The notes beneath the pieces were generated by a model. It had not been told where the DNA came from. It searched no databases and worked only from the letters and a program-made list of their open reading frames with translations. Shown here piece by piece: positions 5,250 to 44,528 of a stretch of DNA of 44,528 nt. This DNA is from a virus. The stretch is from IMG/VR virus record IMGVR_UViG_3300010231_000015. One strand, given 5' to 3'. Every line of letters begins with the position of its first letter. Within the stretch, counting starts at the first letter, position 1. Both the position numbers and the translations under genes were made by a program.

Positions 5250-5294
5250 GGTATGGCCTCCTAAACGCAAAGTGCCACGCCCTGCGATGTACAA

Positions 5295-5310
5295 GGTGTG
5301 GCACTCTTAG
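5295..5310 (-). promoter_or_regulatory. Motif-2 copy b (minus strand CTAAGAGTGCCACACC), a candidate phage-RNAP promoter
   Basis: Near-identical to 5421..5436 and to 27431..27447 on the plus strand. It lies about 45 nt upstream of the first late gene, and its GTGGCACT also forms one arm of an 8-bp hairpin with 5271..5278. Confidence 0.45.
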
Positions 5311-5420
5311 TAACCTGTTAGATACTGGATTACTCTATGTGTATCTCAGAGTAATACCTGTATGTACCTCTGTTTAATACTGTGTATCTCTGTCTCTCTT
5401 TCCTTCTCACCTTCGTTCAA
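5311..5420 (-). other. AT-rich spacer with GAGATACACA repeats and an 8-bp hairpin, a candidate replication origin or UTR
   Basis: GC content is visibly far below the genome norm. Minus-strand GAGATACACA occurs twice. ATTACTCT (5329..5336) pairs with AGAGTAAT (5348..5355) around an 11-nt loop. No ORF. Confidence 0.5.
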
Positions 5421-5436
5421 AGTGTGGCACTCTAAG
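5421..5436 (-). promoter_or_regulatory. Motif-2 copy a (minus strand CTTAGAGTGCCACACT), a candidate phage-RNAP promoter
   Basis: It abuts the RNAP stop codon (5437..5439) and is followed, in the direction of transcription, by the AT-rich block. Confidence 0.45.
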
Positions 5437-7866
5437 TCAACAGAAGAAGAACTCACTGTTCTTAATCTCTTGAAGGTTAAGACTACTCTTCTTCGGAGCC
5501 TCACCAGTACCACCTACTTCCCACAGGAAGTCTAGTAATACATCATTGTGAGTATAGAGATTGACAAATTCCTCTCTGAGTATGGAATTCATCTGCGCTA
5601 CATCACAAGGGTGCGTACCGAACGAGTCATGGATTGCTACCATCTGCAAGCCTTCCTTGTTCATCCTGTTAGCTGTCATGGTTAGGTGACTAGCATCTAA
5701 GGCATGCACGAAGTTAGGCGCTATGGCGTTCTGCATCTTGCTCGGGTTAGTAGAGTCCAAGGGCTCATAGATCATCACCCGATTCACACCACACGAGTTA
5801 ATGCGTACACGAACCTGCTCTACGTCTTGGTAATCGTGCTGCACCTTAAACCCGGTGGGTGTTGTCCATTCCATGCGCTGCCCTTTCGGTACAGTGCGGC
5901 ATGCTTCCTTCAACCAGCGCATTGCTTGCGCTGCCGCTGGGACCGTTGCCTCGATACCGCTGAATAGCATCTTTGCCCCGTAGGTTGCCACGTCGCAATT
6001 GCGCTGCCCTTCGAGCTTCACGTCCTCGCGGTCGTGCAAGGCTTCCTGCTCCAAGAACTCGGCGGTCCCGCGCAGCGTCGCGCCGTAGACGTAGGTCATG
6101 ACCGGCTTCTTGGCCTGAGAACGCGTTATACCGGCTCGGAGCCAGTGGTCCCTAGCTACCCCTTCGGCTCGCTGTCGGAGCGCCTCCACGGCCTCATTTG
6201 CCACCTTCGTGTAGATGTCCTGCTTGGCATCCCCGCCCGAGTCGAACAGGTTGACGTACTTGCCGCCAATCGGGTCGCGGAGCATGGCGCTGAAGTGCTG
6301 AAGGCCCGAGCATGTCGCGTCCTGATGGCACGGTACGCCCGTCTCATACGTCGCCGGGTTCCCGCTGCGGTACGCTTCACGAAGCTCCCACGCGGCGGCG
6401 AACATGCACCACGGCGAGTCACCCCACACGTCAGGGTGGTTTTCCGGCTCGTCAAGGGCTCGCTCAATCTCGGCCCAATGCTCATCCACCCAGCGAACGC
6501 GGGCCGCTGTGCGAGCCTTGTCGAAGCCGTAGGAGTTGGCGATCTGCACCTTGAGCGCGTCCACGCCGTACCGGCCTAGTGGCTTCTTGTCTGCGAAGTG
6601 CAACGCGCCCTTGGCTACGTCCGTGCCCTGCGGGTTCGGCGTGCCGTTGTAGTACCAGCGGCCTCGGGTATCCATCATCACGGAGAACCACAGGCGGGAC
6701 GTGTCGCGCAGCCCGAGCTTCAGGAACCCGGCGATCTCCTGCGTGTGGCCTCGCCACTTCTTCATGTCGGTGTAGTACTGCGTCATGGTCCGTTTCCAAG
6801 CCATGAACAGGGCCTTCTCGGCCTCGGTGCCGTCCTCCTTGATCCAATCCTCGGGCAAGGGAAACGGCGGCTTGGCGGGCTTCTCACGGCTCGGCAGGCC
6901 CATCGTGTTACCACCGCCCTGCCACGCCCTGCGGATAGCTTCGAGCGTCGGCTGATGCACCGTGTACGGGATCGACTGAAGGTAGTTGGCGCAGGCGAAA
7001 ACCTGCGGCATCTTCTCGGCAGTGAACTGCTCGCGGATACGGCGCTTCTCCGAGCGGCGCACGCGGCGCAAGCTCATGAGCGGGAACGCCTGCTGACGGC
7101 GCACGCTGAGATAGCCGCCGCCGTCCAAGCGCTCCCACGGCAGCGGCGGGCACTGCATGGCCCCTGCCCCACGATCCACGATACCATGCACGTCGCTTTG
7201 GTCGTAGTCGTTGAGGTAGTCCGCAATCTCGACCTCAAGCTGATAGATGACCATGCCACCGGGCATCGTCACCGGCTTCACGAGGCCCGCGAGGTAGCAG
7301 GCATCGAGTCCGAACTTGCCGACTTGTATGCACTCGCTATCCGACAGCGAGCTATCGAGTTCGCCCTTCATGACACGATCATATGCCACGTTGTACAGAC
7401 GGCGAAGGTGACCATAATCGACCGTGCCGTTGCGGCGTACTTGGTCGTGAATCTTCTCCATGTACATCGGGTTGACTTCCTCGGCCTCAGCGATGCGAAC
7501 CTCAGTCTCATACAGACGACCGATGCGCACGCAAAGCATCTGCGCTGACGCCACTGCGCGGCGAGTCTTAGCTCCTGAGTCCGAACACTGCGAGATACAC
7601 TCACGCATGGCGATGAGCGCGGCCTTGTCTGCCCCGACGCGGCGCACCCATGCCTTGTACTTGCCACCAGTGCCGCGTGTCTTTACGTCCATTTCCACGG
7701 CGATGAGGTCACGCACCGTGGCGAACATCTTGGCGGTAAGACGCTGGGCTCGCGGAGCCTCGGCGTCACCCGACGCAGCCGCGTCCTGCAACTCCTTCAA
7801 TCGTGCAACAGCAGCCTCGCTATCGCACTTCAACTCATAAGCTAGTTGCATGTCCTGCGGCGTCAT
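5437..7866 (-). CDS. Single-subunit DNA-directed RNA polymerase (T7 RNAP family)
   Basis: 809 aa. AGGAGG RBS before ATG 7866. Carries ...KKPVMTYVYGAT... (motif B-like) and ...VAIHDSFGTH... (motif C). Its position at the end of the DNA-metabolism block is the phiKMV-type arrangement. Confidence 0.95.
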   Translation of the reverse strand: MTPQDMQLAYELKCDSEAAVARLKELQDAAASGDAEAPRAQRLTAKMFATVRDLIAVEMDVKTRGTGGKYKAWVRRVGADKAALIAMRECISQCSDSGAKTRRAVASAQMLCVRIGRLYETEVRIAEAEEVNPMYMEKIHDQVRRNGTVDYGHLRRLYNVAYDRVMKGELDSSLSDSECIQVGKFGLDACYLAGLVKPVTMPGGMVIYQLEVEIADYLNDYDQSDVHGIVDRGAGAMQCPPLPWERLDGGGYLSVRRQQAFPLMSLRRVRRSEKRRIREQFTAEKMPQVFACANYLQSIPYTVHQPTLEAIRRAWQGGGNTMGLPSREKPAKPPFPLPEDWIKEDGTEAEKALFMAWKRTMTQYYTDMKKWRGHTQEIAGFLKLGLRDTSRLWFSVMMDTRGRWYYNGTPNPQGTDVAKGALHFADKKPLGRYGVDALKVQIANSYGFDKARTAARVRWVDEHWAEIERALDEPENHPDVWGDSPWCMFAAAWELREAYRSGNPATYETGVPCHQDATCSGLQHFSAMLRDPIGGKYVNLFDSGGDAKQDIYTKVANEAVEALRQRAEGVARDHWLRAGITRSQAKKPVMTYVYGATLRGTAEFLEQEALHDREDVKLEGQRNCDVATYGAKMLFSGIEATVPAAAQAMRWLKEACRTVPKGQRMEWTTPTGFKVQHDYQDVEQVRVRINSCGVNRVMIYEPLDSTNPSKMQNAIAPNFVHALDASHLTMTANRMNKEGLQMVAIHDSFGTHPCDVAQMNSILREEFVNLYTHNDVLLDFLWEVGGTGEAPKKSSLNLQEIKNSEFFFC

Positions 7867-13310: not shown

Positions 13311-15853
13311 GCAGCCCTCCCGTATAGCTTCTCGACAGTCGCCGGATCATTCAGCACGCCTTCGTGCCAGTGCAACTTGTCTTTCATGTTGAGGCCGAAC
13401 TCCGCAGCAGCGGGGAACGGGACGTTGAGGTTGTAGCCGTACTTCTCGCTGAAGTAGCGCGGCAAGTCCTCCATGATCGCCTTGATACCGGCAAGCACGA
13501 TGTCCAGTACCGAGTGGTGACAATCGACGTAGATAGCATCGTGAACCGTATTAATCACGAACACGCGCCCGCCGAAGAAGTCGTTAGCGATGAGCCAACG
13601 AATCACACGGCCACTGATACCCTGCACGAAGAAGCCTGACTCGCCCTGAATCGGGTAGTTGCGCATCTGCGTCGGCTTGAACTCCATGACTTGCACGCGC
13701 TTGCGTTGCCCGCCTTCGAACACAGTGCGAACCTTCTCGTACTCGCGGAACTCGTAGCACGTACCGCCCACGGCCTTATAATGGCCACGGCCATACACGC
13801 GCCACTCACCACTGTCCGTCTGCTCCCGGAACAACTGACGTGTCGCCGCAACCATCGGGAACACTTCCTGATCGAAGTACGCTTCGACTCCGGGGAACAG
13901 TGCCTTCTCGCGGTCAATAAACGCCTGAGCTTCTTCGACCGGCATACCCGTAGAGAACGAGATACCCATAGCCGTAGCGCCGTACTGGTACGCAAACGCA
14001 GGCGGCTTGATGTCCGTCCGCATCGCATCGTACTTCGCATGCTCAGGGTGATCTTGGTTCTTGCACTTCTCCAAGACAGATTCATACGGCTCCCCGAGCT
14101 TCGCACTCAAGCGCAGGCAGTGCATGTCGATCTTGTCGAGCAGCGCCTTGATGAGTTGCTTGTCCTGAGAGAACGCCGCAAGCGTCACGACTTCTAGCGC
14201 GCTGTAGTCCAGTTCGCAAATAAAGCCGTTCTTGATGCCCCGCTTGATTTCGTCCATGCACAGGTCGAAGAACTCCTGCCCTATGAGGCCGACGCCCAGC
14301 GCGTAGATGAGCCACTTTGGAGACGAGAACCGCGACACGAACATGGCCTTCACGTCGCTCGTGTTACCACGCGGCAGGTTCTGGAAGTTCGGGCGGTTAG
14401 ACGACAGCCGCGTTGTCGCGGTCGCCGTTGTGTTCAACGTGTGATGCACGATGTTCAGGTCGTCCATGTACTGCAACATACCCGACACCTTCACCACGTT
14501 GCCCTCGTCGTCGTACTCCTTGCGCAAGTAGTACGTACCCATGTCCTTGTCCACCTTGTTGAAGGTATCCAAGTCCGTCAGCACCTTGCGGACGTTCTCC
14601 GGGAACTCCTTGCGCTTCGTCAGGAACTCTAACGAATCCTTGCCGGTGGCGATGACGGGCGACTCGTCGGCCAGCTTACGCTTGCCGGTGAACTCCTTCA
14701 GGAACTCCTCGCGGATCGTCTCGCTCAGCAGCGAGAGGTCGCACAGCGGCGGCGCATGATACAGGGTGTCCTCCCATATCAGTTTCTGCGTCGTCGTGTC
14801 CTCCCGAGTGACCTTGATGAGCCCCTTGTTCTTGCCGCTCTTGTAGCGTTCGAACGTGAAGCCGTGGTCGAACCCGGCAGTCTCCGGGTCTTTCCACTCG
14901 ATGCGCTCTTGCGGTGTGCCGCTGTCCATCAGCACAGGCATGTGCCCCTGCTCGTTGAGGAACACGGTCATCGCAACCGGGCCGGTCATCTTAACGGCGT
15001 CGCCCTTCTCCCATACCGGCGTACCGTCATCGTTGAACTTGGGCACGCGGTGCCGGTACTTGATCGGTCCGCCGAACAGCCACGCGCTCATGTGGAAGTC
15101 GCTCGTCTCCTTGAATTCCAACGCGCCGGGATAGCCACCACGGTATGCACGGAACGACTCACGCAGCGAGGCGATCTTGGCCTCACCTTCCTCAAGCTGC
15201 CGGAACGCAACCTCGGTGTCGATGAGCAGGCCCGAGTCCATCGCGTAGCAATTGAACAGCAGGCCCTCCATGCGCTCAAGCGCCATGTCCCACATGCCAC
15301 GCTCGGTAAGCTGCTGATACTGGCCGTAGAAGATGGTCCGCGTGTTCGCCACGTCGCCATGCGTCGGGCTGATGAGGTACTCCAACAGAAGCGCCGGGTC
15401 AATCTCAGACGTGAGTTTGCCCTGCTCCCACAGCGCCTTAACGCCGTCCACCTTGTGCGTCCCGCCGTACAACGGCGCAATCTCGTTGAGCGCCGGGTAC
15501 GTGTCCCGCTGATTGCTGAGCAGGTAGTGGGCGTAGGCCGTACAGAAGATGCGCCCGCCACGCTTCAGGAACTTATGAAGCTCCTGCCGCTGCTGCACGA
15601 GAGACCAGTCCAGTTCGAACGCGGCGTTGTGCATGACGATGAGCCACGCATCATCCGGGATCGAGAGCCAAGGCCGACTCGCGGCCTGTTCTTTCGACTC
15701 GTTGCGTATGTACTCGATAGCGCCGTCATACGGCTGCGTGTCGATGGCCCAGCCGTTCAGCACCACGTAGTTATCAGGACAACGCGGAGAGGCGACAGCG
15801 CCGAACCACGGCTTGTTCTCCGTCTCCAAGTCCCAAAACATGATGCGGCTCAT
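13307..15853 (-). CDS. DNA polymerase, family A, with 3'-5' exonuclease domain
   Basis: Start moved to ATG 15853 (GGGAGGA RBS, ATGA overlap with the ligase stop). 848 aa. Exonuclease motifs FWDLETE and NAAFELDW. Polymerase motifs DYSALEV (A), RTDIKPPAFAYQYGAT (B) and NTVHDAIYVD (C). Confidence 0.92.
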   Translation of the reverse strand: MSRIMFWDLETENKPWFGAVASPRCPDNYVVLNGWAIDTQPYDGAIEYIRNESKEQAASRPWLSIPDDAWLIVMHNAAFELDWSLVQQRQELHKFLKRGGRIFCTAYAHYLLSNQRDTYPALNEIAPLYGGTHKVDGVKALWEQGKLTSEIDPALLLEYLISPTHGDVANTRTIFYGQYQQLTERGMWDMALERMEGLLFNCYAMDSGLLIDTEVAFRQLEEGEAKIASLRESFRAYRGGYPGALEFKETSDFHMSAWLFGGPIKYRHRVPKFNDDGTPVWEKGDAVKMTGPVAMTVFLNEQGHMPVLMDSGTPQERIEWKDPETAGFDHGFTFERYKSGKNKGLIKVTREDTTTQKLIWEDTLYHAPPLCDLSLLSETIREEFLKEFTGKRKLADESPVIATGKDSLEFLTKRKEFPENVRKVLTDLDTFNKVDKDMGTYYLRKEYDDEGNVVKVSGMLQYMDDLNIVHHTLNTTATATTRLSSNRPNFQNLPRGNTSDVKAMFVSRFSSPKWLIYALGVGLIGQEFFDLCMDEIKRGIKNGFICELDYSALEVVTLAAFSQDKQLIKALLDKIDMHCLRLSAKLGEPYESVLEKCKNQDHPEHAKYDAMRTDIKPPAFAYQYGATAMGISFSTGMPVEEAQAFIDREKALFPGVEAYFDQEVFPMVAATRQLFREQTDSGEWRVYGRGHYKAVGGTCYEFREYEKVRTVFEGGQRKRVQVMEFKPTQMRNYPIQGESGFFVQGISGRVIRWLIANDFFGGRVFVINTVHDAIYVDCHHSVLDIVLAGIKAIMEDLPRYFSEKYGYNLNVPFPAAAEFGLNMKDKLHWHEGVLNDPATVEKLYGRAA

Positions 15854-18438: not shown

Positions 18439-19275
18439 TTAATAAAAGATGTTGCGAACGTGGAGTTGAATCGCGTTTATCTCCATGTCCTTCGGGTCAA
18501 GCCCATCGGGGGCGCATGCGTCAACGCCGCCGACCGGCACACCAATGCCCGCAGCACGCAGCCGCGTGAGGTTAGTGGCTGAGCCTTTATGGCCCGCGAA
18601 GTCTCCGTCGTAGAAGCTCGCCACTGCCTCATAGTTCTTGAGCATGAGCATGAACAGCTTGTCATGGATAGCGGTGCCGAGCGTGCAGAACACGTCAACT
18701 GGAGTGCCTGCCTTGGCGAGCGCCCACTGGACTTTATAGTAGGAGAACAAGTCCTCCACCACCACGGCCCGCTTGCCGTGCTTCACGTTGCCAACGTAGT
18801 GCTGCCCGTTGTACGTGAGCCACTTCTCCGGGCTTCGGCCACTCGTGTCGCGGCCCATGTACTCGGTGTGAAACAAACCTGATGCGAGCAGCAGCTTGTG
18901 CGTCGGTACTAGTAGCCGGTGGCGCGACTCGGACCATACAACACCAGTGGGCAGATACCCGAAGTCCATATGCTTGGACGCGAGAAACTTGGCGAGGAAC
19001 TCGCGTTGGTACTCCACCAACTCACTGACGCGCTTAGCGTCGCCCGGTATCGTAAGCACCCGACTCTGCGGCGGTTCGCTCTGCACCAGCAGAACGTGCG
19101 ACTTCATTTCCACAGCACCAGCCTTGCAGCGTTGGCAGTAACACCACCATCTGTCAGGCGTGTTGCCGACCACCATAGCCGCGTCTCCCTCGTGCCCATG
19201 CACTACTCGGGACTGCTGATTGATGGCGCACTTCTTCGCCTTGTCCAGCCATTCTTCATTCCGTATGCGTGACAT
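18439..19275 (-). CDS. DNA primase (zinc-binding plus TOPRIM)
   Basis: Start moved to ATG 19275 (AGGAGG RBS). 278 aa. Cys/His cluster C..HGH...CYCQRC, then VVVEDLFS and FYDGDFAG, which are TOPRIM-like acidic motifs. Confidence 0.8.
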   Translation of the reverse strand: MSRIRNEEWLDKAKKCAINQQSRVVHGHEGDAAMVVGNTPDRWWCYCQRCKAGAVEMKSHVLLVQSEPPQSRVLTIPGDAKRVSELVEYQREFLAKFLASKHMDFGYLPTGVVWSESRHRLLVPTHKLLLASGLFHTEYMGRDTSGRSPEKWLTYNGQHYVGNVKHGKRAVVVEDLFSYYKVQWALAKAGTPVDVFCTLGTAIHDKLFMLMLKNYEAVASFYDGDFAGHKGSATNLTRLRAAGIGVPVGGVDACAPDGLDPKDMEINAIQLHVRNIFY

Positions 19276-25758: not shown

Positions 25759-26337
25759 TTACTCTACGGTAGGCTGCTCAGCGGGAACAACCTTGATGCC
25801 TTCGTCACTTGCCAGCGCACGGAGCGCCGCGAGTTTGTCAGGCTGAACAAGACTCGTGTCCTGTTCTTTCTTCGTCAGCGCTGCCTCCGCTTTCTTCAGG
25901 ATGGAAGCGATGGCCTTCGCCAGATCGAACTGGTGATACTTCGGTTCCGGCGAGAAGCTCCAGAACGGCTCGGCAATCGCGGCGGCCATGTTGGCGTCGC
26001 TCATCACCTGCTCGCGCCGCTCTTTGACGTATGCGAGGTTGCCGTTGTCGTCCGTGGTGAACGCGCCGTAGTTGCAGAGCCAAGCCATGAGGCCCGCTTT
26101 GCGTGCCGATTGGCCCAGCGCCGCGACAAGCCGCGTTGCAACGTCGGGATCGTTGTGTTGCGCCGAGTGCATCAGCACCGAGCATGCTGCGCGGTGGATG
26201 TCAGTGTCGAGCTTTGCCGAACGCGATGCAATCGAGCCGATTGCTTTGTTCAGTTCCGCTTGAGTCTTGATGAGCGTGAAAACCGGCGCTGCCTTGGTCT
26301 TGCCGGTCTTGGTTGCTGCTTGTTTCGTGGTTGCCAT
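25759..26337 (-). CDS. Hypothetical early protein
   Basis: 192 aa. AGGAG 6 nt upstream of ATG 26337. First substantial ORF downstream of the early promoters. Confidence 0.75.
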   Translation of the reverse strand: MATTKQAATKTGKTKAAPVFTLIKTQAELNKAIGSIASRSAKLDTDIHRAACSVLMHSAQHNDPDVATRLVAALGQSARKAGLMAWLCNYGAFTTDDNGNLAYVKERREQVMSDANMAAAIAEPFWSFSPEPKYHQFDLAKAIASILKKAEAALTKKEQDTSLVQPDKLAALRALASDEGIKVVPAEQPTVE

Positions 26338-26961
26338 GATAAGCTCCTGTTCAGGTCAGGGTACTACGTTGGTAAGTGGTGCGCCCTGCCCTCAATGCCT
26401 AAGCATCAAGCCATCCCCGTACCAACATCATACGGCTACTAACAAGGCGCACTATTTACCACTCTTCAAAGTGGGTTTCTTGAGCATGCACTTTAACCGG
26501 GCACCATTCACTACCCGCCACCTCGTTACGCCCGCCTTTGCCGGTTTCCAGTCGTATCGCTCACTACCCTCATTGCTGAGTCTCGCTTGCTACCCGTCTG
26601 TACTCTCGTGCATCGCAGTCCCGTATGTCGGTTGCTATGCTCATGTCAGGGGTTCTGTTATGCTCCCCGTCCTAGGCCCAGTACTCTTCTGTACTGTGCT
26701 GCGTCCCTTCGTGCGTTATCGGTTGCAAACCGCGCCTTAGTGCGCCTTGGCTAACTCCTGATAGCGGGATTGCCTCTCAGGTATCACTGCCTAGCGCCTT
26801 GCAATTCTCGCGTCTCACTTGGCTACCCTCTGTATCGCCCGGAGTGGTCATCACCCGGATTGTCACTGACTACAGAGTCTTGCCTAGCTACCCGCACGGC
26901 TTGCTATCGCCGTACAACAGGTAAGTCTGCTGCTCACTGCTTACTGCCTACTACGCTTCGC

Positions 26962-26990
26962 ATGTTAGAGGCTAGTTCTTAGCGTGTCAA
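26962..26990 (-). promoter_or_regulatory. Sigma70-type early promoter P1 (TTGACA-17-TAACAT)
   Basis: On the minus strand, the -35 TTGACA is at 26990..26985 and the -10 TAACAT at 26967..26962. An A-rich stretch and the conserved 26-nt element lie immediately upstream. Confidence 0.6.
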
Positions 26991-27001
26991 CTACTTATTT
27001 G

Positions 27002-27027
27002 CTAGGTGCTAACCCTTAGATGCTTAG
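27002..27027 (-). repeat. Conserved upstream element, copy 1 (plus strand CTAGGTGCTAACCCTTAGATGCTTAG)
   Basis: Matches 27173..27198 at 25 of 26 positions. It sits at the same offset (171 nt period) from the -35 of P1 as copy 2 sits from P2. Confidence 0.8.
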
Positions 27028-27133
27028 GTACTACATGGTTGCAGTCTGAGCTACGGTACAAGGCATCAACTTTGTGTGAGCCGTACTAGCTAACCCACTC
27101 CTTACTGCGCTGTTCACTGCAACCACAGAACGG

Positions 27134-27161
27134 ATTGTATAGAGTCTACAGACGATTGCAA
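27134..27161 (-). promoter_or_regulatory. Sigma70-type early promoter P2 (TTGCAA-16-TACAAT)
   Basis: The -35 is at 27161..27156 and the -10 TACAAT at 27139..27134, both on the minus strand. Confidence 0.6.
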
Positions 27162-27172
27162 GCACTATTTCA

Positions 27173-27202
27173 CTAGGTGCTAACCCTTAGCTGCTTAGCA
27201 CC
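27173..27202 (-). repeat. Conserved upstream element, copy 2, containing an 8-bp inverted repeat (GGTGCTAA-n11-TTAGCACC)
   Basis: Arms at 27176..27183 and 27195..27202. Overlaps the stop codon of the 68-aa gene. Could act as an operator or as an RNA hairpin. Confidence 0.75.
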
Positions 27203-27393
27203 TTACGACCACGGTTAGTTCCTGCTCTACGCTTAGCCTGTAGTGCTTTAACCTGTTCCTTAGCAAAGGCTTCTGCCTGTTCCTTAGCAACCTGTTCCTC
27301 TATACCACTAGCTACTAACTCCCGGAGCTTACCAGCATACAGAGCATGGTATCTGCGCTGGTCAGCCCTAAGCCTATCCATTGATGCACCCAT
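27187..27393 (-). CDS. 68-aa highly charged helical early protein
   Basis: AGGAG 5 nt upstream of ATG 27393. Sequence MGASMDRLRADQRRYHALYAGKLRELVASGIEEQVAKEQAEAFAKEQVKALQAKRRAGTNRGRKVLSS. It is the first ORF in the sense direction within the terminal non-coding region. Confidence 0.65.
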   Translation of the reverse strand: MGASMDRLRADQRRYHALYAGKLRELVASGIEEQVAKEQAEAFAKEQVKALQAKRRAGTNRGRKVLSS

Positions 27394-27430
27394 AGTATCT
27401 CCTATCTATCTATGTGCTAACCAGTTTACA

Positions 27431-27452
27431 TTAGAATGCCACACTGTGGAAG
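27431..27452 (+). promoter_or_regulatory. Motif-2 copy c on the plus strand (TTAGAATGCCACACTGTGGAAG)
   Basis: 15 of 16 identical to minus-strand 5435..5420 (TTAGAGTGCCACACTT). It points away from all genes, into the GATACA-rich AT block. Confidence 0.45.
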
Positions 27453-27480
27453 CAGTCCAAAGCGATGAGCGGCGAGCCGA

Positions 27481-27651
27481 CAGGCGATACACGCGAAGCA
27501 AGACAGGATACATAGAGCTATACCATGTATGACATAGAGATACATAGATAGATACATAGATCACACTGTGTATGAGATAGATAGACACAGGATTAACACA
27601 CATGTATGCGAGCGATAAGAAACAGATAGCGCACACACTCAAGCGAGCGAA
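27481..27651 (+). repeat. AT-rich GATACATAGA-type repeat block bounded by GCGAGCCGA direct repeats
   Basis: GATACATAGAT(A) is tandem at 27539..27561. Related copies lie at 27507..27517 and 27531..27540, and GAGATAGATAGAC at about 27574. GCGAGCCGA occurs at 27472..27480 and 27652..27660. Confidence 0.75.
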
Positions 27652-27850
27652 GCGAGCCGAGTGTTAATACCTAAGCTCTGATGTCCTCCATATCCATAGA
27701 AGTGTAAATCCCATCATCACGCTTGCTATCATGCGCTGGATGTGCTAGGTGCATGCGCTGTGTAGCTGCTAGGCAACGTGAGCCAAGCCTGTTAGCACTT
27801 GACATAATGTACGTTAGCAACCACTAGGGTAGACACCTAGCATCTAGCGC

Positions 27851-27878
27851 TTGCATGCTGCGCTGGCTGTGGTACAAT
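27851..27878 (+). promoter_or_regulatory. Sigma70-like promoter on the plus strand (TTGCAT-16-TGG-TACAAT), antisense to all genes
   Basis: The -35 is at 27851..27856 and an extended -10, TGGTACAAT, at 27870..27878. A 6-bp hairpin GAGTGC-n10-GCACTC follows at about 27885..27906. No ORF lies downstream. Confidence 0.35.
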
Positions 27879-28003
27879 CGAAGTGAGTGCGTAAATCCTA
27901 GCACTCAGTGCGATGGCTCGATTGGGAGGGCCAAGGGGGAAAGTCAGGCCGTCGCGGGTCGGAGAGGGGCTCACAAAAATTTATCAAACTAGAGCCGCTA
28001 GTA

Positions 28004-28351
28004 TTACTCGCTACTCTTACCCTTCAAGTCTCGCTTACCCAACAGCCTTAGCCCGTAGCCATACAGGTAATCCGTAAGGTAGGCCATAGGCTCACCCTTA
28101 GACTCTATGTCGTAGGGTTTGATGCCCTTCATGTCCAAGATGTACAGCACGCAGTGGACTAGCTCATGCACCAACGTCCTAGCGTCGCCATCGAACACTC
28201 CCACTACCAAGCCATACTTCTTGTGCCAGCCGGTGAGCCCAGCGGCAGTGTCGCAGATCGGCGTGCCGGTTAAGCGAGCAAACTGCGCTGGGTCATCGGT
28301 GAAGGTCACGGGCTCGCTGTACGGATGCGCCCAGCACTTCACCGAGGCCAC
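28004..28351 (-). CDS. Small HExxH (zincin-like) putative metallopeptidase
   Basis: 115 aa. GTG start 2 nt after the upstream TGA. ...ARTLVHELVHCVLYILDMKGIKPYDIESKGEPMAY... is HExxH with Glu residues 17 and 21 aa downstream. It is the last gene on the sense strand. Confidence 0.6.
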   Translation of the reverse strand: MASVKCWAHPYSEPVTFTDDPAQFARLTGTPICDTAAGLTGWHKKYGLVVGVFDGDARTLVHELVHCVLYILDMKGIKPYDIESKGEPMAYLTDYLYGYGLRLLGKRDLKGKSSE

Positions 28352-28353
28352 GA

Positions 28354-28548
28354 TCAGCCACCCGCCGCGTCGGTGCTGTCAGCGATGGTCGCGTCGAGTT
28401 CAGTCTTTGCAGCGGCGAGGACGGTGGTGATGTCCTGCGAGTAATCGACCGGATTGCGGTTCACGTTCTGGCGGACGGCGGCGCTGGCGCGGTCGAGCGC
28501 GTTGGCGAGGTTGAGACGTTCTTGTTGGGTGCGGTTCTGCAAGCTCAT
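28354..28548 (-). CDS. Hypothetical 64-aa protein, paralog of 28658..28855
   Basis: AGGAGG 4 nt upstream. The C-terminus TVLAAAKTELDATIADSTDAAGG resembles ALASLKTLLDAAVADATPTPDA in its neighbour. Confidence 0.6.
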   Translation of the reverse strand: MSLQNRTQQERLNLANALDRASAAVRQNVNRNPVDYSQDITTVLAAAKTELDATIADSTDAAGG

Positions 28549-28657
28549 AGAGCCTCCTGTGGAAATGAGAGGGAAGGGCGTTATTCAGGCGCTGGGCGGG
28601 CTCGCGTACCCACGGCTATACCAACATAGCCTGAGAGGTCGCGAGCCCGTCAGGGCG

Positions 28658-28855
28658 TTATGCGTCGGGTGTCGGAGTTGCGTCGGCAACCGCTGCGTCG
28701 AGCAGGGTCTTGAGCGAGGCGAGGGCGGTGTCCGTAGCGGCGACCATTGCCGGGTTGCGGCTGTCGCTCCGGTAGACGAGCAGGGCCTTCAGGGTGTTCT
28801 CCATCGTGCCCGAGAGGGCATACACTTCGTTCGTGGTTTGGTTTGCAACGCTCAT
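28658..28855 (-). CDS. Hypothetical 65-aa protein, paralog of 28354..28548
   Basis: Start moved to ATG 28855 (AGGAG 6 nt upstream, just after the Rz1 stop). Confidence 0.6.
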   Translation of the reverse strand: MSVANQTTNEVYALSGTMENTLKALLVYRSDSRNPAMVAATDTALASLKTLLDAAVADATPTPDA

Positions 28856-28856
28856 G

Positions 28857-29147
28857 TCATTCTCCTTTGAGGATTGTGTCGGCCCACGCCTTGATGCTGG
28901 CGCGGTCGTCGTTGGCCCTGTCGAGTGCGTCGAGCAGGGCGTTTGTCCAGCGTGCCCACGATTCATTCGTGAGCGGGAAGGCCGGTCGAGCTACCTCGAT
29001 GGGCGAGGCGTATGCGACCGGATCAGGGACCGCTGGCGGGCTCGGCGCTTGAGGCAGGGCCGTACACCCCGAGAGCAGCAGCAACGTCATCAGGGACGCG
29101 CTGAGCAGCCCACGTAGGGTTCGCTTTGAGTGCGTTGTCGAGCGCAT
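28857..29147 (-). CDS. Outer-membrane spanin Rz1 (lipoprotein)
   Basis: Signal peptide ending at the lipobox LLLLSGC. The mature part is Pro-rich (PQAPSPPAVPDPV). It starts inside Rz in another frame and extends past it, which is the overlapped spanin architecture. An alternative start is ATG 29090. Confidence 0.75.
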   Translation of the reverse strand: MRSTTHSKRTLRGLLSASLMTLLLLSGCTALPQAPSPPAVPDPVAYASPIEVARPAFPLTNESWARWTNALLDALDRANDDRASIKAWADTILKGE

Positions 29148-34111: not shown

Positions 34112-37100
34112 TTACTTCGATTGCTGCCCGTCCTTCAGCGTCTCGGCCATTGCTTTAACGCCGGGGATGATAGACAGCAGCGGGATTGAATTGATAGCAC
34201 CCGATGCGGCGGTGCCGAACTGCCCGTTAGCCAACGAGCTACCAGTCTTGTACAGCCGGTCGATTGCCATAAGGCCACTAGCGCCGAACTGCTGCTTGTC
34301 GCCGGATGCAACGCCCCACAGTTCCGACAGCAGGCCCATAGCACCCATCTGAGATAGGGCCGTGCTTGCTGCCGTGTTGAGGTCGAGCGGACCTTGGCCC
34401 TTGAGCATCGAGTTCGCTTGCGATGCGAGCATCGTCAGCGGGAACTGATACATCATGAGCAAGCCCATACCGCCGAAGCCTTCACGGCCTAGCGATCCAG
34501 CAAGCACCTTGTTATGCGCGCCGAGGACGAACGAGCGGAACGTGAAGATGAACTTGCCCACGCTAGAGAATTGCGCGAACGCGGGAATCTCGCCTGTTCT
34601 ATTCTTCAGCACCGCGTCATCCATCATCTTGCCAAGCGGGCCTCGAATCTGTGCCCACGTTGCATCGGACCATGCTGCCGTATTCAGGCCATTGGCCTTG
34701 ATGTCAGCAGCAACACTGCTCAAGGTATGGCCCTCTAAGCCGTACTTCGCAAGAGCCTGCTGCGCAGCCTTGTCGCCCAACGCACCCTTATGGAATACGT
34801 CCGCGACGAGATTACCGACAACGCGTGCTTGGTTGTGGTGGATGTAGTGCATCGCATTGATATACGGCACGATCTGCTTAGCCTGCTGCAACGACAGTCC
34901 AACGTGATCGCCCAAGCTCATTTCGAAGTTGTCCTCCATCTTTTGAATGTAAGGGCGAATCCGAAGGTCTTGCGACGAGTTGCGCGCGAGGATAGCGGCG
35001 AGCGATGCAGGGTCATGGTCGGCACCACCCATCAACGTCTTAAAGACCGGCAGGGTTCGCATGATCTCTTTCGTAGTCTTGATGAGACCGTACTTAGCCA
35101 TAGCGTTGGAGTACTCAGTCAACTGCCACAGGCCCGAGCCCGACAATCCCACCATCTGCGTGATTGCAGCGAGACGACGCATACCGTCACCGACTTCATC
35201 ACCAACCGGCTGACCCTTGATCGACGCAATGATGTTGTCGAACAGGGCCGCAGCTTTCTTGCGTGATCCCTCGTCGGCAACACCGTGCAGGAACTCGGTA
35301 CGCAGTTGGTCGATAGCCGTGGACGTATTAAGCGGCACGTCCTCACCCTTGGCGTTCTTGAACGACTTACGCGCGAGCGCTGAGTTGCCAGCAGCGTTGT
35401 CCAAGTAGCCGTCGAGGTTGCGTGCGACGTTCGTATCCAGCAAGTCCATCACCGAGATACGCGAGCCGTCTGCGAGTTGCAGGCTGTGCGACGTGTCCAT
35501 CGCAACGCGGTGCTTCAGTGCCGACGCCTTGCCTGCCTCGTCGGTTACGCCGGTGATGACTTCCATCGCCTTCTGGATACGGTCAGCCGTGATACCGGGA
35601 GTCTGCGCGAGGATGTCGCGCACTTCCTTGGCACCGCTGTTGCCAACGTGACCACGGAACGCTTGGTCCTCGAAGTACCCCTTACGGCGCGCGCGCTCGA
35701 TGATCGCAGCGGCGACATCAGAGATAGCATCGGCGTCCCACATAGGGTTAGCCTTCTGGATCGCAGAGGCAACCATCTTTCGGACTACGGAACGTGACTG
35801 CTTCTCCGTCACACCGTTGGCTGCGGCGATGCGATTCTCCATGTCCTCAATCTGCGTGACGCTCCACTTGCGCGGCGCATACCCAGCAGCTTCGTCCACA
35901 GCATCAGCACCCATCACACCAGCGGCCTGCATTTCCTTCAGCGCTTGCGCGGTTGCTGCATCGTGCGCATCGGCCAGCTTCGTAATCATCGGGTCTACTG
36001 ACGGATCAGCAGTCGGCAGGCCACGGCGAGCCGCAGTGTTACGGCGTTGCAGTTCAGCGTAGACTTGCTTCTCGATGTCGTGCTGAATCTCAGCAGACTT
36101 ACGCGGATTCAGGATGCGGTTACGCAACCCAGCACCACGCGATGCCATTGCTTCCTTCAGGCCGTCCTCATAGCGATACTGCAACTGCGAGAGGTCCGAG
36201 CGGATAGCCTGCTTCTGCGACACCACCGAATCGCCCGTCATGTTGACCGGATCATCAACCAGCAAGTCGGCAACCTTCTTGCCTGCGCTGCCGAGGCCGC
36301 TCACGGTCTTGTGCAATGACCACGAGATAGCGTTACCCGTCTTGGCTGCTGCGGATTCCATGCGCTTAACGATGGTCGCGGCCTGCTGTCCCGGCGTACC
36401 GGTAGGTGCAGTAGCGGGAGCGCTGTGCAGGCTCATACCCGGAACCTCGGCTGTGCCCTCGACCTTCACATTGAGCTTCGTGTTGATGAGTTCGTCGGTG
36501 AGGCCCAGCGCGCGCGTGAGCGCGTTCGTCTGCGTCGGCGGAATGCCCAACAGCTTGCGCACCGTGTCCACCATCTTCGAGAGCATGTTAGGCGCGCGTG
36601 AGCCCGCACCGACAGGCATACGTGAGAGGATCGTAGGCAAGCCGCCAATGTTGCCTGAGTACAAACCAGCGACGAACTCGTTCAGGTTCTTCGTGAGATA
36701 CGTCGCATCGTGAAGCTGAGACGCCGTGAGTCCCTCTGCGTCCTTCAGCCATACCCGCGTGCGGTTCAGCAAGTCCTGCAACTCAGCCGTGATCCTGCCG
36801 TGAGCCGTGCCGGGGTTCGCCATACCAAAAGCCAGCTTGTGAACCGTGAGACCGTGCATGACTTCGTGAAGCGCTGCGAACGCGCTCAGGTTCCGCTGAG
36901 GGAAGTGCGGGTTCGCTGCCATGTGTTCGGCAGTCGGCATGTGGACGCTGTGTGAGCCTGCCGAGTAGAACGGCGTAGCATTCCTATCCAGTTCCGACTC
37001 CATGACCTTGAGCTTGTTCAGCAGGTCAGGTTGTTCCTCGCGTAGCACGCGAATCATCGGGCCGAACTCGGCATCGTCCTCGAAGCGTCCGAGGTAGGTG

Positions 37101-38110
37101 TACGCATCGGTTACGGGATCACCCGCTTTGACGCCACGCTCGGCGAGCAACTCTTTGTTGCGGAACGTAGCCTCAAGCGTGGATTCCTCTGCCACTGCCG
37201 CACCCTTGGCGATGGTTGCGCCATCGGTGCCCACCAGCGCAGCCGTGCGCTCGACTTCCTGCTCCACGGTCGGCGTGGCGCGCGATACGGTCTCCTGCTC
37301 CGACACGATGCGCTTCTCTGCCCCGGTGGACTGTCCACGAACGTCAGCAGCGGCTTGGCCCAGCACGTCCGAGGGGTACTCAGGGTCAGCCTGCACCAGC
37401 CCCTTCTTGGGCCTGTACGCCATCGCCGTGGCCGCACCGCTCAGCAGTGCGGGCAGGATGATTTCGGTGTCGCTCATCGGGACCACCTGAGCCTGCACAG
37501 CGCCGAGGCCGAGGGTCGCAGTCGCGGCCATGACGCCAGCGGCCACGCGGCCCGTTTGCAGCGCCGTGGCGACGCCACCGGACGCGAGGTCGAGTGCTAG
37601 GTAGCCGGGATCGGCCATGCCCACCAGCGTCGATACAATCGGATGATCGCCCATCTGCGCATACAGCGCGCGCTGGGTCTGCGTGTTCTGCAACCGGTAG
37701 TTGAACTCATCCAGCGAGCGGGACTGCGCAAAGAACTTCTGCTCATCCTCGCTCATCATGAACGGGACTTGATTGATGTACGGCTTCGGATCGAAGTCGG
37801 GGTCGCGGTCGAAGTGAGGCATGTTGATGTAGTCCCACACACGCACAGGGCTCCATGACTTCGCAGCCGCGAGCGCAGCGTCACCCACTGTTGCCAGCGG
37901 GCGAGCGTTCTGCGCGATTGTGTTCTGACCGATAGCAGCGGACATGGTGCCCGCGCCGATCTCGGTTTGTGCTACCTTCTCGGGGGCCGACGCCTGTGCC
38001 GGTTCCGGCGTCGGAGCAGCACCCATCGGGTCGAACTCAGGCACAGCGTTTCCAGTGGGAGCGTCGCCCCCGTAGATACGCGGATCGACATTAACGATAG
38101 GTTCTGCCAT
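34112..38110 (-). CDS. Internal virion protein C (T7 gp16 / phiKMV gp37-like)
   Basis: 1332 aa. AGGAG RBS. Largest ORF, positioned after the gp15-like gene. Contains an HEVMH motif at aa 415-419. Confidence 0.8.
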   Translation of the reverse strand: MAEPIVNVDPRIYGGDAPTGNAVPEFDPMGAAPTPEPAQASAPEKVAQTEIGAGTMSAAIGQNTIAQNARPLATVGDAALAAAKSWSPVRVWDYINMPHFDRDPDFDPKPYINQVPFMMSEDEQKFFAQSRSLDEFNYRLQNTQTQRALYAQMGDHPIVSTLVGMADPGYLALDLASGGVATALQTGRVAAGVMAATATLGLGAVQAQVVPMSDTEIILPALLSGAATAMAYRPKKGLVQADPEYPSDVLGQAAADVRGQSTGAEKRIVSEQETVSRATPTVEQEVERTAALVGTDGATIAKGAAVAEESTLEATFRNKELLAERGVKAGDPVTDAYTYLGRFEDDAEFGPMIRVLREEQPDLLNKLKVMESELDRNATPFYSAGSHSVHMPTAEHMAANPHFPQRNLSAFAALHEVMHGLTVHKLAFGMANPGTAHGRITAELQDLLNRTRVWLKDAEGLTASQLHDATYLTKNLNEFVAGLYSGNIGGLPTILSRMPVGAGSRAPNMLSKMVDTVRKLLGIPPTQTNALTRALGLTDELINTKLNVKVEGTAEVPGMSLHSAPATAPTGTPGQQAATIVKRMESAAAKTGNAISWSLHKTVSGLGSAGKKVADLLVDDPVNMTGDSVVSQKQAIRSDLSQLQYRYEDGLKEAMASRGAGLRNRILNPRKSAEIQHDIEKQVYAELQRRNTAARRGLPTADPSVDPMITKLADAHDAATAQALKEMQAAGVMGADAVDEAAGYAPRKWSVTQIEDMENRIAAANGVTEKQSRSVVRKMVASAIQKANPMWDADAISDVAAAIIERARRKGYFEDQAFRGHVGNSGAKEVRDILAQTPGITADRIQKAMEVITGVTDEAGKASALKHRVAMDTSHSLQLADGSRISVMDLLDTNVARNLDGYLDNAAGNSALARKSFKNAKGEDVPLNTSTAIDQLRTEFLHGVADEGSRKKAAALFDNIIASIKGQPVGDEVGDGMRRLAAITQMVGLSGSGLWQLTEYSNAMAKYGLIKTTKEIMRTLPVFKTLMGGADHDPASLAAILARNSSQDLRIRPYIQKMEDNFEMSLGDHVGLSLQQAKQIVPYINAMHYIHHNQARVVGNLVADVFHKGALGDKAAQQALAKYGLEGHTLSSVAADIKANGLNTAAWSDATWAQIRGPLGKMMDDAVLKNRTGEIPAFAQFSSVGKFIFTFRSFVLGAHNKVLAGSLGREGFGGMGLLMMYQFPLTMLASQANSMLKGQGPLDLNTAASTALSQMGAMGLLSELWGVASGDKQQFGASGLMAIDRLYKTGSSLANGQFGTAASGAINSIPLLSIIPGVKAMAETLKDGQQSK

Positions 38111-41546: not shown

Positions 41547-43889
41547 TTACCTCCTACGCAACTTTTGGTTGTACCGGCACACGTACTCCAAGGAGAGGAT
41601 GTTCATTTCCCCAAGCCCCTCAGTGAACAGCACCAGCGTCGTTGTGTTAGCGTTCGTGCGGCACGGTAGGATTGCTACCGACTCACCATTCACGCGCGGC
41701 TTACCGAGGTCGAGTTCCTCGCTGCCCCAATACAATGCGGGCATGGTCTGCGTATCGTCCTCAACATCGGTAGATGCGTCCGCAACGATTGCCTCGTACT
41801 CGGCTGTGTTAGCAGTGCCTACCATGTACCGGAGGATCGTCAGCTTGTTGCTACTGATGACCACGCCGTTGCTATCCTTCACAAGTGGCGGCGTCGGACT
41901 GAACGATGAACGATACGGAATGCCAATCGTCACAGGGCCAGCCGGGAAGGATGGAACCGTGGTGACTTGCGTCGCGCTGCGCGCGTCGATACCGACTTCC
42001 TCGCCTAGCAGCGTGGAGTCCTTGTCCGATAGCCGTACCGTTTGGTATGCCGTCGAGTCAAGGAGCCGGATCGCATCCGGGATCGGCGCGAGGTTGTTCG
42101 TGACGGTCGCATCGGAGTACAGGTCAAGGTATGGCCTCCTATCCGCTTGGGCGGTCAGCGTCCCGATACGCGGGTCGATTGAGCCGATGGTGATGTTGCC
42201 GTTCTGCAAGAACACGAGATAAATGTTCGAGCCTGAGAAGAAGGCGTCTGCAATGTCGAACGGGAACGTCCAACGATGCCACGCCTGCTGTACCTTGCTA
42301 TCTGCGTCCCACAGGTACTCATGCACGATGAGCGTCCGGTAGTCCCGCGTGCTTGCGAACAACGCCATGTTCGCCACGGACGACGACACAGCGAAGCGGC
42401 AACGGCCTGCGAGGTACTTCGGCAGGTGACTCGTCACGTCACTCGATAGGTACTGCGAATCGGTGTATTGAGACGGGACCATTTCCATCACGCCGTAGAA
42501 GTCCAGTGAGCGCGGCGCGGGGTACATCAGCGTGCGGCCTGTAGGGATCGGCGCACACGTCATGTCGGCCTCATACGTCGAGGTCACGATGACGGATGCC
42601 GTCTGCGGCGTGACGGGTTGATTGCCACCCGGCACTAGCGCCTGATACTTCTCAGCGAACAGCAGCAAGTCCTTCTGAAACGGAATGCAGTACTGGTACG
42701 CTGCCGACGAGTTCGCGCTTGCCCCTACCTCAATCGGGTCACTCTGCAACACAGAGGTCACAGTGGAGCGATAGAAACGCTGGGGCAGGTTCGATGCGCT
42801 CATGTTCACCAGCGAGCCCGAGAGCAGCACCAGTCGCCCTTGGAACGCACCAACGCCGGTAATCCCTCGTGTGATGAAGTTAGGCGGCGGTGATGTAACG
42901 TCGTCCCCTGCGTAGCGGCCCTCGTAGTCCTGCTTCAGCACCCACGCCGAGCCGTTATAGCTGAGACGTACCGGCATGTTGGCGAGGGCACCCGGCGAAC
43001 CATACTGCCCGCACTCAACCCACGCGAGGCGCTGCGAGTCGTACTTGAAGTACGTGGGCCGGTTCACGTCACCAACGGACATCACGATGCCGTTAGCAGC
43101 CGCGTTCAGCTTTGCAGGAAGCTCGCCAGCGGTCTGCACGTAGCTCCCACCACTCGTGCTGATGTAGGTACTCGGCATCGGCGTAGACACCCGGAAATTG
43201 ACCCCGGCGCACCGCACGAAGATGTACGCACCGTACACGTCTACGTTAGTATAGACAACGTGGGTCGGGTCGATGGATGCGAGGATGTACGCAGCCAACT
43301 GGCCTGCGATGTACTCCGGGGTAGCCAAGGCAGCGTCGCCTGCGTGGGTGCCATCAGGAGTGCTGTACACCGCCGTATGTACAACAGCGGTGCCGTTGTA
43401 CCCGAGGTCTACGCGGTACGTCTGATTGAACGCACCCGTCTTAACATAGAACCACCCGGTATGTGATGGGTCTTGTAAGCCTGCCTGTGCGCCTGAGACG
43501 GTCGGCTTGATGCCTGTGTTGGCAATGATGAACTCGTCGCCCACGGTCGTAGCACGGAGGTTCGCACGCGGGCCGATGAGGTAGCTGCTTGTGAGTTGCT
43601 GAAGCAGCGCCCAATCCTGATTGAACACCGTCAGCGTGCCCGAGATACCGTTCAGCAGCAAGTTCACCTTCTGCCCGCCGATGTCGGTACTCCAACCCGT
43701 CATGTGATCACGGTCTGCGGTCGTGCCGGTCGTTAGCACGGTCTGCGCCCCCGGACGGCGACGGAGACCCGTCACTACATCAGAGAGCATGTTATCCTGC
43801 GCGGTCACTTGGCCGTCGAGGCGCTCGCGGGCCACTTGCTGCGATACGCCTTGAAGCTGTGACTTGGCGCTACCTTCGAAAGCGGCCAT
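41547..43889 (-). CDS. Tail tubular protein B (T7 gp12-like)
   Basis: 780 aa. Position and size are typical. Confidence 0.85.
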   Translation of the reverse strand: MAAFEGSAKSQLQGVSQQVARERLDGQVTAQDNMLSDVVTGLRRRPGAQTVLTTGTTADRDHMTGWSTDIGGQKVNLLLNGISGTLTVFNQDWALLQQLTSSYLIGPRANLRATTVGDEFIIANTGIKPTVSGAQAGLQDPSHTGWFYVKTGAFNQTYRVDLGYNGTAVVHTAVYSTPDGTHAGDAALATPEYIAGQLAAYILASIDPTHVVYTNVDVYGAYIFVRCAGVNFRVSTPMPSTYISTSGGSYVQTAGELPAKLNAAANGIVMSVGDVNRPTYFKYDSQRLAWVECGQYGSPGALANMPVRLSYNGSAWVLKQDYEGRYAGDDVTSPPPNFITRGITGVGAFQGRLVLLSGSLVNMSASNLPQRFYRSTVTSVLQSDPIEVGASANSSAAYQYCIPFQKDLLLFAEKYQALVPGGNQPVTPQTASVIVTSTYEADMTCAPIPTGRTLMYPAPRSLDFYGVMEMVPSQYTDSQYLSSDVTSHLPKYLAGRCRFAVSSSVANMALFASTRDYRTLIVHEYLWDADSKVQQAWHRWTFPFDIADAFFSGSNIYLVFLQNGNITIGSIDPRIGTLTAQADRRPYLDLYSDATVTNNLAPIPDAIRLLDSTAYQTVRLSDKDSTLLGEEVGIDARSATQVTTVPSFPAGPVTIGIPYRSSFSPTPPLVKDSNGVVISSNKLTILRYMVGTANTAEYEAIVADASTDVEDDTQTMPALYWGSEELDLGKPRVNGESVAILPCRTNANTTTLVLFTEGLGEMNILSLEYVCRYNQKLRRR

Positions 43890-44472: not shown

Positions 44473-44510
44473 AAAAAAAAAAGCCCGCCCACCCCGAAGG
44501 ATGAGCGGGC
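44473..44510 (-). terminator. Strong rho-independent terminator downstream of the capsid gene (T7 T-phi-like position)
   Basis: Minus strand reads GCCCGCTCATCC-TTCG-GGGTGGGCGGGC, a 12-bp stem with two G-U pairs and a tetraloop, followed by T10. It is duplicated at nt 1..37 by the assembly overlap. Confidence 0.85.
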
Positions 44511-44528
44511 CGAAAAGCGCGACTCGTT

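Follow-up and report, generated by a model that had tools for sequence, protein, structure and literature searches.

Locus and genome context

The DNA analyzed here (the window) is the entire 44,528-nucleotide (nt) stretch of IMG/VR virus record IMGVR_UViG_3300010231_000015, and the element in question is a predicted promoter for the phage-encoded RNA polymerase (RNAP) that is inverted relative to the genes and is followed, in its own direction, by a purine-rich leader, an AT-rich block and the inner edge of a predicted terminal repeat. The window is a circularly assembled phiKMV-like podophage. All of its long open reading frames (ORFs) lie on the minus strand, and the RNAP gene (5437–7866, minus strand) closes the DNA-metabolism block and is followed by the structural genes, which is the phiKMV-like gene order. 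The RNAP has 66–68% identity with its counterparts in the Ralstonia phages RSB3 and phiAp1 and the Variovorax phage VAC_51, and approximately 42–43% with those of phiKMV-group Pseudomonas phages (42.2% for LKA1; LUZ19 was not among the matches listed). At the DNA level, similarity to RSB3 is limited to 35% of the first 25 kb, where identity is 77%. Positions 1–55 are identical to positions 44474–44528, an assembler overlap indicating that the contig is circularly closed and that the terminal repeat has been collapsed to a single copy.

The predicted inverted promoter

The 19-nt motif TTAGAATGCCACACTGTGG is located at 27431–27449 on the plus strand. When up to three mismatches were allowed, its sole other match in the window was 5417–5435 on the minus strand, with 16 of 19 positions identical and no match expected (100 shuffles); counted against the site directly after the RNAP stop codon, the inverted promoter is identical at 16 of 18 positions. 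A sequence-only reading of this DNA had paired the same plus-strand motif with a minus-strand motif distal to the RNAP gene and considered that it might be a phage-RNAP promoter; the pairing is confirmed, and the promoter reading is supported by what follows. A promoter matrix was trained on the sites of related phages alone, the window sites being excluded. It scored four sites in the window above the 95th percentile of 200 Markov shuffles (15.4; null maximum, 20.1), namely 5435 (minus strand, 27.3), 34738 (minus strand, 23.8), 27431 (plus strand, 22.5) and 5309 (minus strand, 20.1), and only the site at 27431 faces away from the genes. In RSB3, phiAp1 and VAC_51, the motif lies after the RNAP stop codon and ahead of the first late gene, and RSB3 and VAC_51 also carry a promoter at the same relative site as the copy at 34722–34738 of the window. 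As in T7 promoters, every copy comprises 17 nt and then G(G)A, and in several of them the start coincides with the ribosome-binding site of the gene that follows. The leader region, and the plus strand downstream of the promoter, contain no conserved ORF, the small plus-strand ORFs not being conserved; the leader is therefore regarded as non-coding.

A promoter of this kind has been mapped experimentally. ONT-cappable-seq of LUZ19 identified four phage-specific promoters, including the antisense promoter P001, transcripts from which reach the right genome end and yield antisense reads over gp47–49, and 15 other species of Phikmvvirus have an antisense motif of the P001 type (Putzeys et al., 2024, PMC10914365). 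We located the LUZ19 promoter copies at 21117, 21314, 35592 and 749 (the last on the minus strand); the structural copy lies 624 nt before the stop codon of gp37, and the window copy lies 626 nt before that of the homologous 1332-amino-acid gene. Judged by position and by fit to the relatives' matrix, the window promoter is this clade's equivalent of P001, and 27431–27447 is very probably an active antisense phage-RNAP promoter of the P001 type. Its sequence fit, position, orientation, conservation, paralogy and spacing are direct observations, and its activity is assigned by homology. The sequence-only reading had such a promoter transcribing toward the genome terminus and away from all genes. 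This is accurate for a monomeric genome, in which every gene lies in the opposite orientation, and needs qualifying for what lies beyond, because in LUZ19 the RNAs continue through the repeat and are antisense to the last late genes.

Conservation of the inverted arrangement

The inverted motif is present in the non-coding left-end region of RSB3 (518–507), phiAp1 (614–603), VAC_51 (5155–5144) and the metagenome contig L005 (5446; the same contig as L055), on the minus strand of each record. Approximately 230 nt downstream of it can be aligned among genomes that otherwise have no detectable DNA similarity in this region, and the order of elements is conserved: the promoter, AAGCG..AGCGGCGA, ..GCAAGACA, an AT-rich GATACA/CCAGT block, AAGAGACAGATAGCGC and a hairpin. 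In an unbiased search, every 18-mer of the 345 nt after the RNAP stop codon was compared with the whole genome. This search recovered an inverted left-end promoter copy in LKA1, Bertil, Axy21, SnaR1, LUZ19, RSB3, phiAp1 and the window; in VAC_51, the 18-mer match was the leader and not the promoter, whose inverted copy was detected by the motif search. Every related genome examined agrees with the window in place and orientation, a comparison that the sequence-only reading had suggested. The promoter sequences diverge among lineages while the inverted arrangement is kept, which indicates that the arrangement itself is under selection, and at least six lineages outside the genus Phikmvvirus, with diverged promoters, have it as well.

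Antisense promoters of this kind were already described in 2024, and the window is a further case. What is added here is that the leader and AT-rich block have a paralogous counterpart behind the RNAP gene, that the start lies at a fixed distance from the repeat edge, that this edge bears a conserved signal and that the arrangement extends to other lineages.

The region is conserved in short blocks only, and a blastn search with 26800–28400 against 50,697 phage records returned no match. A scan of IMG/VR with AAGARACAGATAGCGC retrieved 33 stretches, in which a profile search found the module in RSB3 and phiAp1 only, the others being chance matches. Terminase-based searches of IMG/VR and a metagenome collection added one informative relative, L005, together with remoter contigs having other promoter specificities. 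In the Sphaerotilus phage SnaR1 (L066), an inverted promoter-like motif is located directly after the RNAP gene at 18791–18808 (minus strand), facing into the gene, with a forward copy next to it at 18832; a further inverted copy (26–9) is found at the beginning of the record.

Leader, AT-rich block and the paralogous module after the RNAP gene

A four-phage alignment shows conservation of the leader that follows the inverted promoter (nhmmer E-values of 1e-50 to 1e-66; 2e-24 for L005). Each of its two boxes (Table 1) occurs once in the whole LUZ19 genome, and both of these occurrences are within the P001 leader. The AT-rich block that follows contains the 100-nt segment of lowest G+C (GC) content in the 44.5 kb (27508–27607; GC 0.33, z −5.0), and the second-lowest such segment (5308–5407; GC 0.36, z −4.5) belongs to the module after the RNAP gene; two of the four promoters thus have one of the two lowest-GC segments immediately downstream. 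The word GATACA is found 11 times on the two strands of the genome, and six of these occurrences fall within the two modules, with the same polarity relative to their own promoters. The AT-rich block of GATACA words reported by the sequence-only reading is therefore real. Its 12-nt tandem repeat is likewise present, as two 100% identical copies (Tandem Repeats Finder), although it begins one nucleotide before the coordinate first given, at 27538. The span of 27431–27660 that had been assigned to motif plus AT-rich block holds as far as 27612; its last ~45 nt (27617–27660) are a separate conserved boundary block and hairpin.

Low GC content at +60 to +170 (0.35–0.47, versus 0.58–0.62 for the genomes) was found in all five clade members. 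A GC trough after the RNAP-proximal promoter is the lowest or second lowest in all five genomes tested, LUZ19 included, and is also present in Bertil and Axy21, where it is extreme. The transcripts predicted from the modules are purine-rich, ranking first or second among segments in the window and first in LUZ19.

RSB3, phiAp1, VAC_51, LUZ19, Bertil and Axy21 share the module layout after the RNAP gene. In relatives, the leader found there is clearly a paralogue of the one that follows the inverted promoter (nhmmer E-values of 8e-15, 2e-8 and 1.5e-7; local alignment z-scores of 14, 12 and 9). Within the window, the post-RNAP leader has kept the purine-rich start and the AT words and has lost the boxes, and the two modules, promoters excluded, resemble each other less closely (local alignment z = 4.5 versus shuffles; nhmmer E ~0.7). 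The earlier statement that the whole bipartite module occurs twice is consequently clear in the relatives (z 9–14) and weak in the window.

Table 1. Coordinates of the inverted promoter region, its companion elements and the adjacent early ORF in the window
Feature	Position	Strand	Details
Inverted putative phage-RNAP promoter	27431–27447	+	TTAGAATGCCACACTGT, positions −17 to −1; predicted start G27448 or G27449
Conserved GC-rich, purine-rich leader	27448–27505	+	box A AGCGGCGAG, 27468–27476; box B GCAAGACA, 27498–27505
AT-rich block of GATACA and ATAGA words	27506–27612	+	holds 12-nt tandem repeat, 27538–27561
Near-invariant block AAGAAACAGATAGCGC	27617–27632		minus (gene-sense) strand GCGCTATCTGTTTCTT; inner edge of terminal repeat
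Hairpin ACACTC ... GAGTGT	27635–27664		conserved loop GAGCGA-AGCGAG; just inside repeat
Predicted direct terminal repeat, ~339 bp	27625–27963		one copy in circular assembly
Co-directional paralogue of the module	5310–5435	−	promoter 5435–5419 directly after RNAP stop, then purine-rich leader and second AT block
Second promoter copy after RNAP gene, TAAGAGTGCCACACCTT	5293–5309	−	matrix score 20.1; core AGAGTGCCACAC at 5296–5307
Promoter copy inside 1332-amino-acid internal virion protein gene (ORF 34112–38110)	34722–34738	−	matrix score 23.8; 626 nt before stop
First early ORF, 68 amino acids	27187–27393	−	divergent from inverted promoter, start 38 nt away; translation conserved in L005

The modest similarity of the two modules within the window (z 4.5) might suggest that they resemble each other by chance, or that an inverted duplication is decaying without present function. 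This can hardly be maintained, because no match was expected by chance, and because position, orientation and spacing are conserved where the flanking DNA no longer aligns; the comparative data already contradict it.

The nucleotide-level conservation of a non-coding leader would also be expected of a discrete structured RNA that acts in trans from two paralogous copies, and a weak consensus stem with some compensatory changes, as well as a hairpin and T-run ~155 nt downstream of the 5.3-kb copy that could end a short RNA, are consistent with this. Such an RNA is nevertheless very improbable, given that Rfam 15 gave no match at E ≤ 1 in 26000–29000, that the consensus fold reaches only −6.4 kcal/mol (z −1.8 for the 213-nt region), and that no terminator follows the inverted copy, the LUZ19 transcripts running on for kilobases.

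Several further observations concern the promoter copies. Between the second and third copies, a hairpin (GTGCCAC-N19-GTGGCAC) followed by TTTGCGTTT lies at 5262–5304 (minus strand) and may terminate a short RNA begun at the RNAP-proximal promoter; phiAp1 has a clearer GC hairpin with TTCTTTGCGTTT in the equivalent place. The 18-nt sequence AGGAGGCCATACCTTGAC is repeated exactly at 5245–5262 and 42123–42140 (minus strand) and belongs to a second sub-type of promoter-like motif (GGCCATACCTTGA), which is also found at 34738 and 13131. The copy at 42142, which is within a 780-amino-acid ORF, scores below the matrix null, yet the exact 18-mer repeat is unlikely to arise by chance. In RSB3 (L001), a perfect 12-nt promoter core lies antisense at 15400–15411 (minus strand) in the ORF25/ORF26 gap, where it overlaps a GCCCACC/GGTGGGC hairpin.

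The terminal repeat and its inner edge

Terminal repeats have been measured in RSB3 (exactly 324 bp), phiAp1 (416 bp) and Axy21 (478 bp). The repeat of the window is predicted to extend from 27625 to 27963 because both of its boundaries are homologous to those of RSB3, the inner one reading gcgctatc/TGT and the outer one ..ccctc/TCCGACCC (the slash marks the boundary); this homology also supports the earlier placement of the element near a genome end. The left physical ends are alike, with TCCGACCC in RSB3 and the window and CCCGACCC in Axy21. On this prediction, G27448 lies 177 nt from the repeat edge and ~516 nt from the physical end. The distance from start to repeat edge is 177 nt in RSB3 as well, 181 nt in phiAp1, ~160 nt in LKA1 and Axy21, and ~260 nt in LUZ19.

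The block at the inner edge is identical at all 16 positions among RSB3, phiAp1 and VAC_51, and the window differs from it at one position (AAGAAACAG for AAGAGACAG). It coincides with the inner repeat boundary of RSB3 and phiAp1, where its gene-sense reading is GCGCTATCTGTCTCTTTT, and the boundary of Axy21 reads TCTGTCTCTTTTCG. In these three phages the block is no more than 8 nt from the measured repeat end: the signal is at 322 in RSB3 (repeat end, 324), at 424 in phiAp1 (416) and at 478 in Axy21, to be compared with 161 in T7 (160). At the boundaries of LKA1, LUZ19 and KP34, only a related pyrimidine/T-tract is present. The adjoining hairpin has arms that differ across all five phages with pairing kept; its consensus (RNAalifold, −8.4 kcal/mol) shows a compensatory change in five of ten pairs, and each stem taken alone is no better than shuffles.

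These features raise the possibility that the region is a DNA-level signal for packaging or repeat processing, read by a terminase or nicking enzyme, with the promoter-like motif as a protein-binding site or accessory. In RSB3, phiAp1 and Axy21, the measured boundary falls exactly at the block of highest conservation, with the related T-tract in LKA1, LUZ19 and KP34; the left physical ends (TCCGACCC) are conserved too, and the covarying hairpin adjoins the boundary. As an explanation of the whole element it is nonetheless improbable: it accounts well for 27617–27664 but not for 27431–27612, copies of the motif and leader are found behind the RNAP gene as well, remote from any terminus, and in LUZ19 the corresponding site has been mapped as a start of transcription.

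A pyrimidine/T-tract (..CTGTCTCTTTTCG, TGCCTCTTTTGCCC, TGCCTTGCTTATTTTGCG) follows the repeat directly in every phiKMV- or KP34-like genome with a measured repeat (L001, L002, L068, L069, L020 and L064). On the opposite strand it forms a polypurine block, and it may be a general signal for processing or termination at the repeat edge.

Adjacent early region

The 68-amino-acid ORF that diverges from the inverted promoter has a good ribosome-binding site and lies upstream of the recognizable early promoters; its own promoter could be within the AT-rich block. No sigma-70-type promoter was found at the tool threshold on either strand of 27394–27660, so that a role of the AT-rich block as early host promoter for this ORF is not supported. 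Two sigma-70-like early promoters are located on the minus strand at 26990–26962 and 27161–27134, and just upstream of them lies a 40-nt direct repeat (26988–27027 and 27159–27198, 83% identical) that may be a common regulatory site. A sigma-70-like promoter directed leftward (TTGCAT-16-TACAAT, TG-extended) lies within the predicted repeat, at 27853–27882 on the plus strand, and has counterparts in RSB3 (141–114, TTGACA-16-TACCAT) and L005 (5024–4996, TTGACT-17-CATAAT). A conserved word, TTGACATAATGTACGTTA, precedes it in the window and relatives, and it is reminiscent of the leftward host promoter A0 of T7.

Proposed function

The account favored here, which we hold at about even chances, is that of a working phage-RNAP promoter, set back-to-front between the left repeat and the early genes, with an origin-like function. 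The phage RNAP, once made, would start at approximately G27448 (the leftward start expected in RSB3 and phiAp1 is ~17 nt after TTAGAGTGCC), transcribe the purine-rich leader, in which AGCGGCGAG and GCAAGACA lie, followed by the ~100 bp richest in AT, and enter the repeat ~177 nt downstream. From a monomer, it would yield a run-off RNA of ~516 nt; from a concatemer, the RNA would continue antisense into the last late genes. Transcription could thereby open or prime the DNA beside the repeat, such that the end region and the repeat are copied or processed, and the arrangement would be the mirror image of T7 phiOR, which crosses the repeat from the other side. As a side effect, the polymerase would run head-on against late transcripts that read through the concatemer junction, the conserved terminator-like signal facing the opposite way. 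We infer each functional step of this account. An origin-like role is favored because it explains the AT-rich block, the paralogy with a module at the position of a T7 origin, the purine-rich transcript and the fixed spacing; that such a role, or one in crossing or processing the repeat, is the main function of promoter, leader and AT-rich block together is plausible at somewhat less than even chances.

The main rival to the origin-like role is a transcriptional insulator or antisense regulator, which would fire against late read-through, keep RNAP out of the early genes and lay antisense RNA over the last late genes, the AT-rich block and leader being incidental. Blocking of read-through into the early genes is the hypothesis advanced by the authors who mapped P001, whose antisense reads cover gp47–49 (Putzeys et al., 2024, PMC10914365), and the terminator-like signal at the repeat edge (the hairpin, then TATCTGTTTCTT), which faces incoming late transcription, suggests that control of read-through matters there. 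If that signal works, however, an insulator would be redundant. An insulator also leaves unexplained both the fixed spacing to the repeat edge and the duplication of leader and AT-rich block, in the same polarity, after the RNAP-proximal promoter that drives the late genes. We therefore consider it possible but rather unlikely as the main function.

Several points weigh against an origin-like function. P001 of LUZ19 has no AT-rich block downstream (GC 0.65), so that such a block is not required for the antisense promoter generally, and the deepest GC trough at the left end of RSB3 and VAC_51 is found at the inverted promoter itself or upstream of it, not downstream. The two modules of the window itself are only modestly similar, as described above. 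A leftward primer would run off the end of a monomer after ~0.5 kb. The left-end promoters of KP34 and T7 are in the gene orientation, so that their role need not match. Finally, the proposed origin role is drawn from comparison with T7, and both promoter activity and a replication role in the window's clade are predictions from sequence.

A more specific version of the origin-like function is speculative and, in our estimation, unlikely. In it, the paired modules would be replication origins, and the RNA hybrid formed by the purine-rich left-end transcript would end at the conserved polypurine block of the repeat edge (GAAAAGAGACAGATAG on the leftward strand) and prime leftward strand displacement across the repeat, duplicating the repeat for concatemer maturation. 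By a similarly doubtful analogy, this would mirror the T7 route, which starts at phiOR, crosses the repeat and leads to the concatemer-junction pause, and, with no better prospects, the boxes might act like the conserved sequence blocks at the origin of the mitochondrial T7-like RNAP.

Any functional model must meet three constraints, namely the fixed distance from start to repeat edge, the leader boxes and, in this clade, the AT-rich block that are shared with the module at the place of the T7 primary origin, and the conserved signal at the repeat edge. Roles in replication or repeat processing and in transcriptional insulation are directly testable in the cultivable phages RSB3, phiAp1 and LUZ19. 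For annotation, the analysis yields a likely promoter consensus and the likely physical ends of an uncultured phage genome.

Comparison with known systems

The boundary block resembles the class II pause/termination signal of T7, a resemblance that is not established as function. The minus strand of the window reads CT-ATCTGTT-TCTT at the inner repeat edge (core, 27627–27621), and in T7, ATCTGTT is located at 161–167, directly after the 160-bp repeat. The rule for class II signals is a 7-nt core, ATCTGTT, preceded by A, C or T, in which any change abolishes the T7 signal; the window core is followed by T-rich sequence, and the relatives of the window have ATCTGTC, six of the seven core positions, so that the clade as a whole departs from the strict signal. 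Avoidance of ATCTGT on the sense strand, which a class II reading would predict, was not seen in this clade (5 observed versus 5.6 expected in the window), whereas the hexamer is depleted in T7 (3 observed versus 6.8 expected, with 15 on the antisense strand); the counts are small.

In KP34, a copy of the strong phage promoter (nt 475–490) is situated between the 216-bp left repeat and the early genes (Lu et al., 2019, PMC6834552). KP34 therefore resembles the window in having a left-end phage promoter, and in repeating that promoter immediately after the RNAP gene and within the structural region; its left-end copy is on the gene-sense strand, whereas that of the window is antisense. The A0 promoter of T7 (nt 224) is similar in that it lies near the left end and is aimed at the terminus, away from all genes, but it is a promoter for the host RNAP, whereas the window promoter is of the phage-RNAP type.

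A further parallel in the layout of T7 is the combination of phage-RNAP promoters with AT-rich DNA, one set of which follows the RNAP gene (phi1.1A/phi1.1B) and another of which lies beside the terminal repeat. In T7, phiOL, phiOR and phi1.1A/phi1.1B with its AT-rich region serve as replication origins, phi1.1A/phi1.1B being the primary origin. The phiOR promoter sends RNAP across the terminal repeat, as predicted for the window promoter, although phiOR reaches the repeat from the left and the window promoter from inside (the right). As the sequence-only reading had noted, phiOL, phi1.1A/phi1.1B and phiOR all run rightward, in the gene direction; the window copy is inverted.

The closest counterpart is P001 of LUZ19, which is likewise a phage promoter opposite to all genes, between the left terminal repeat and the first genes. 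The two promoters differ in sequence (TTAGAGTGCCAC.. against TTATGTCACACACA..) and in their distance to the repeat (~260 nt in LUZ19 versus 177 nt in the window), and the AT-rich word block of the window has no equivalent downstream of P001. Alignment of the leaders of the window and LUZ19 was not significant (z 2.0), and the two unique boxes, AGCGGCGAG and GCAAGACA, present in both leaders, are the support for their homology. The CACAC..GG core of the window motif is in register with the LUZ19 motif GgtTATGTCACacACAnnGG, and the four sites are arranged alike in the two phages: a pair of promoters after the RNAP gene, a third within the internal virion protein gene and, at the left end, an antisense copy.

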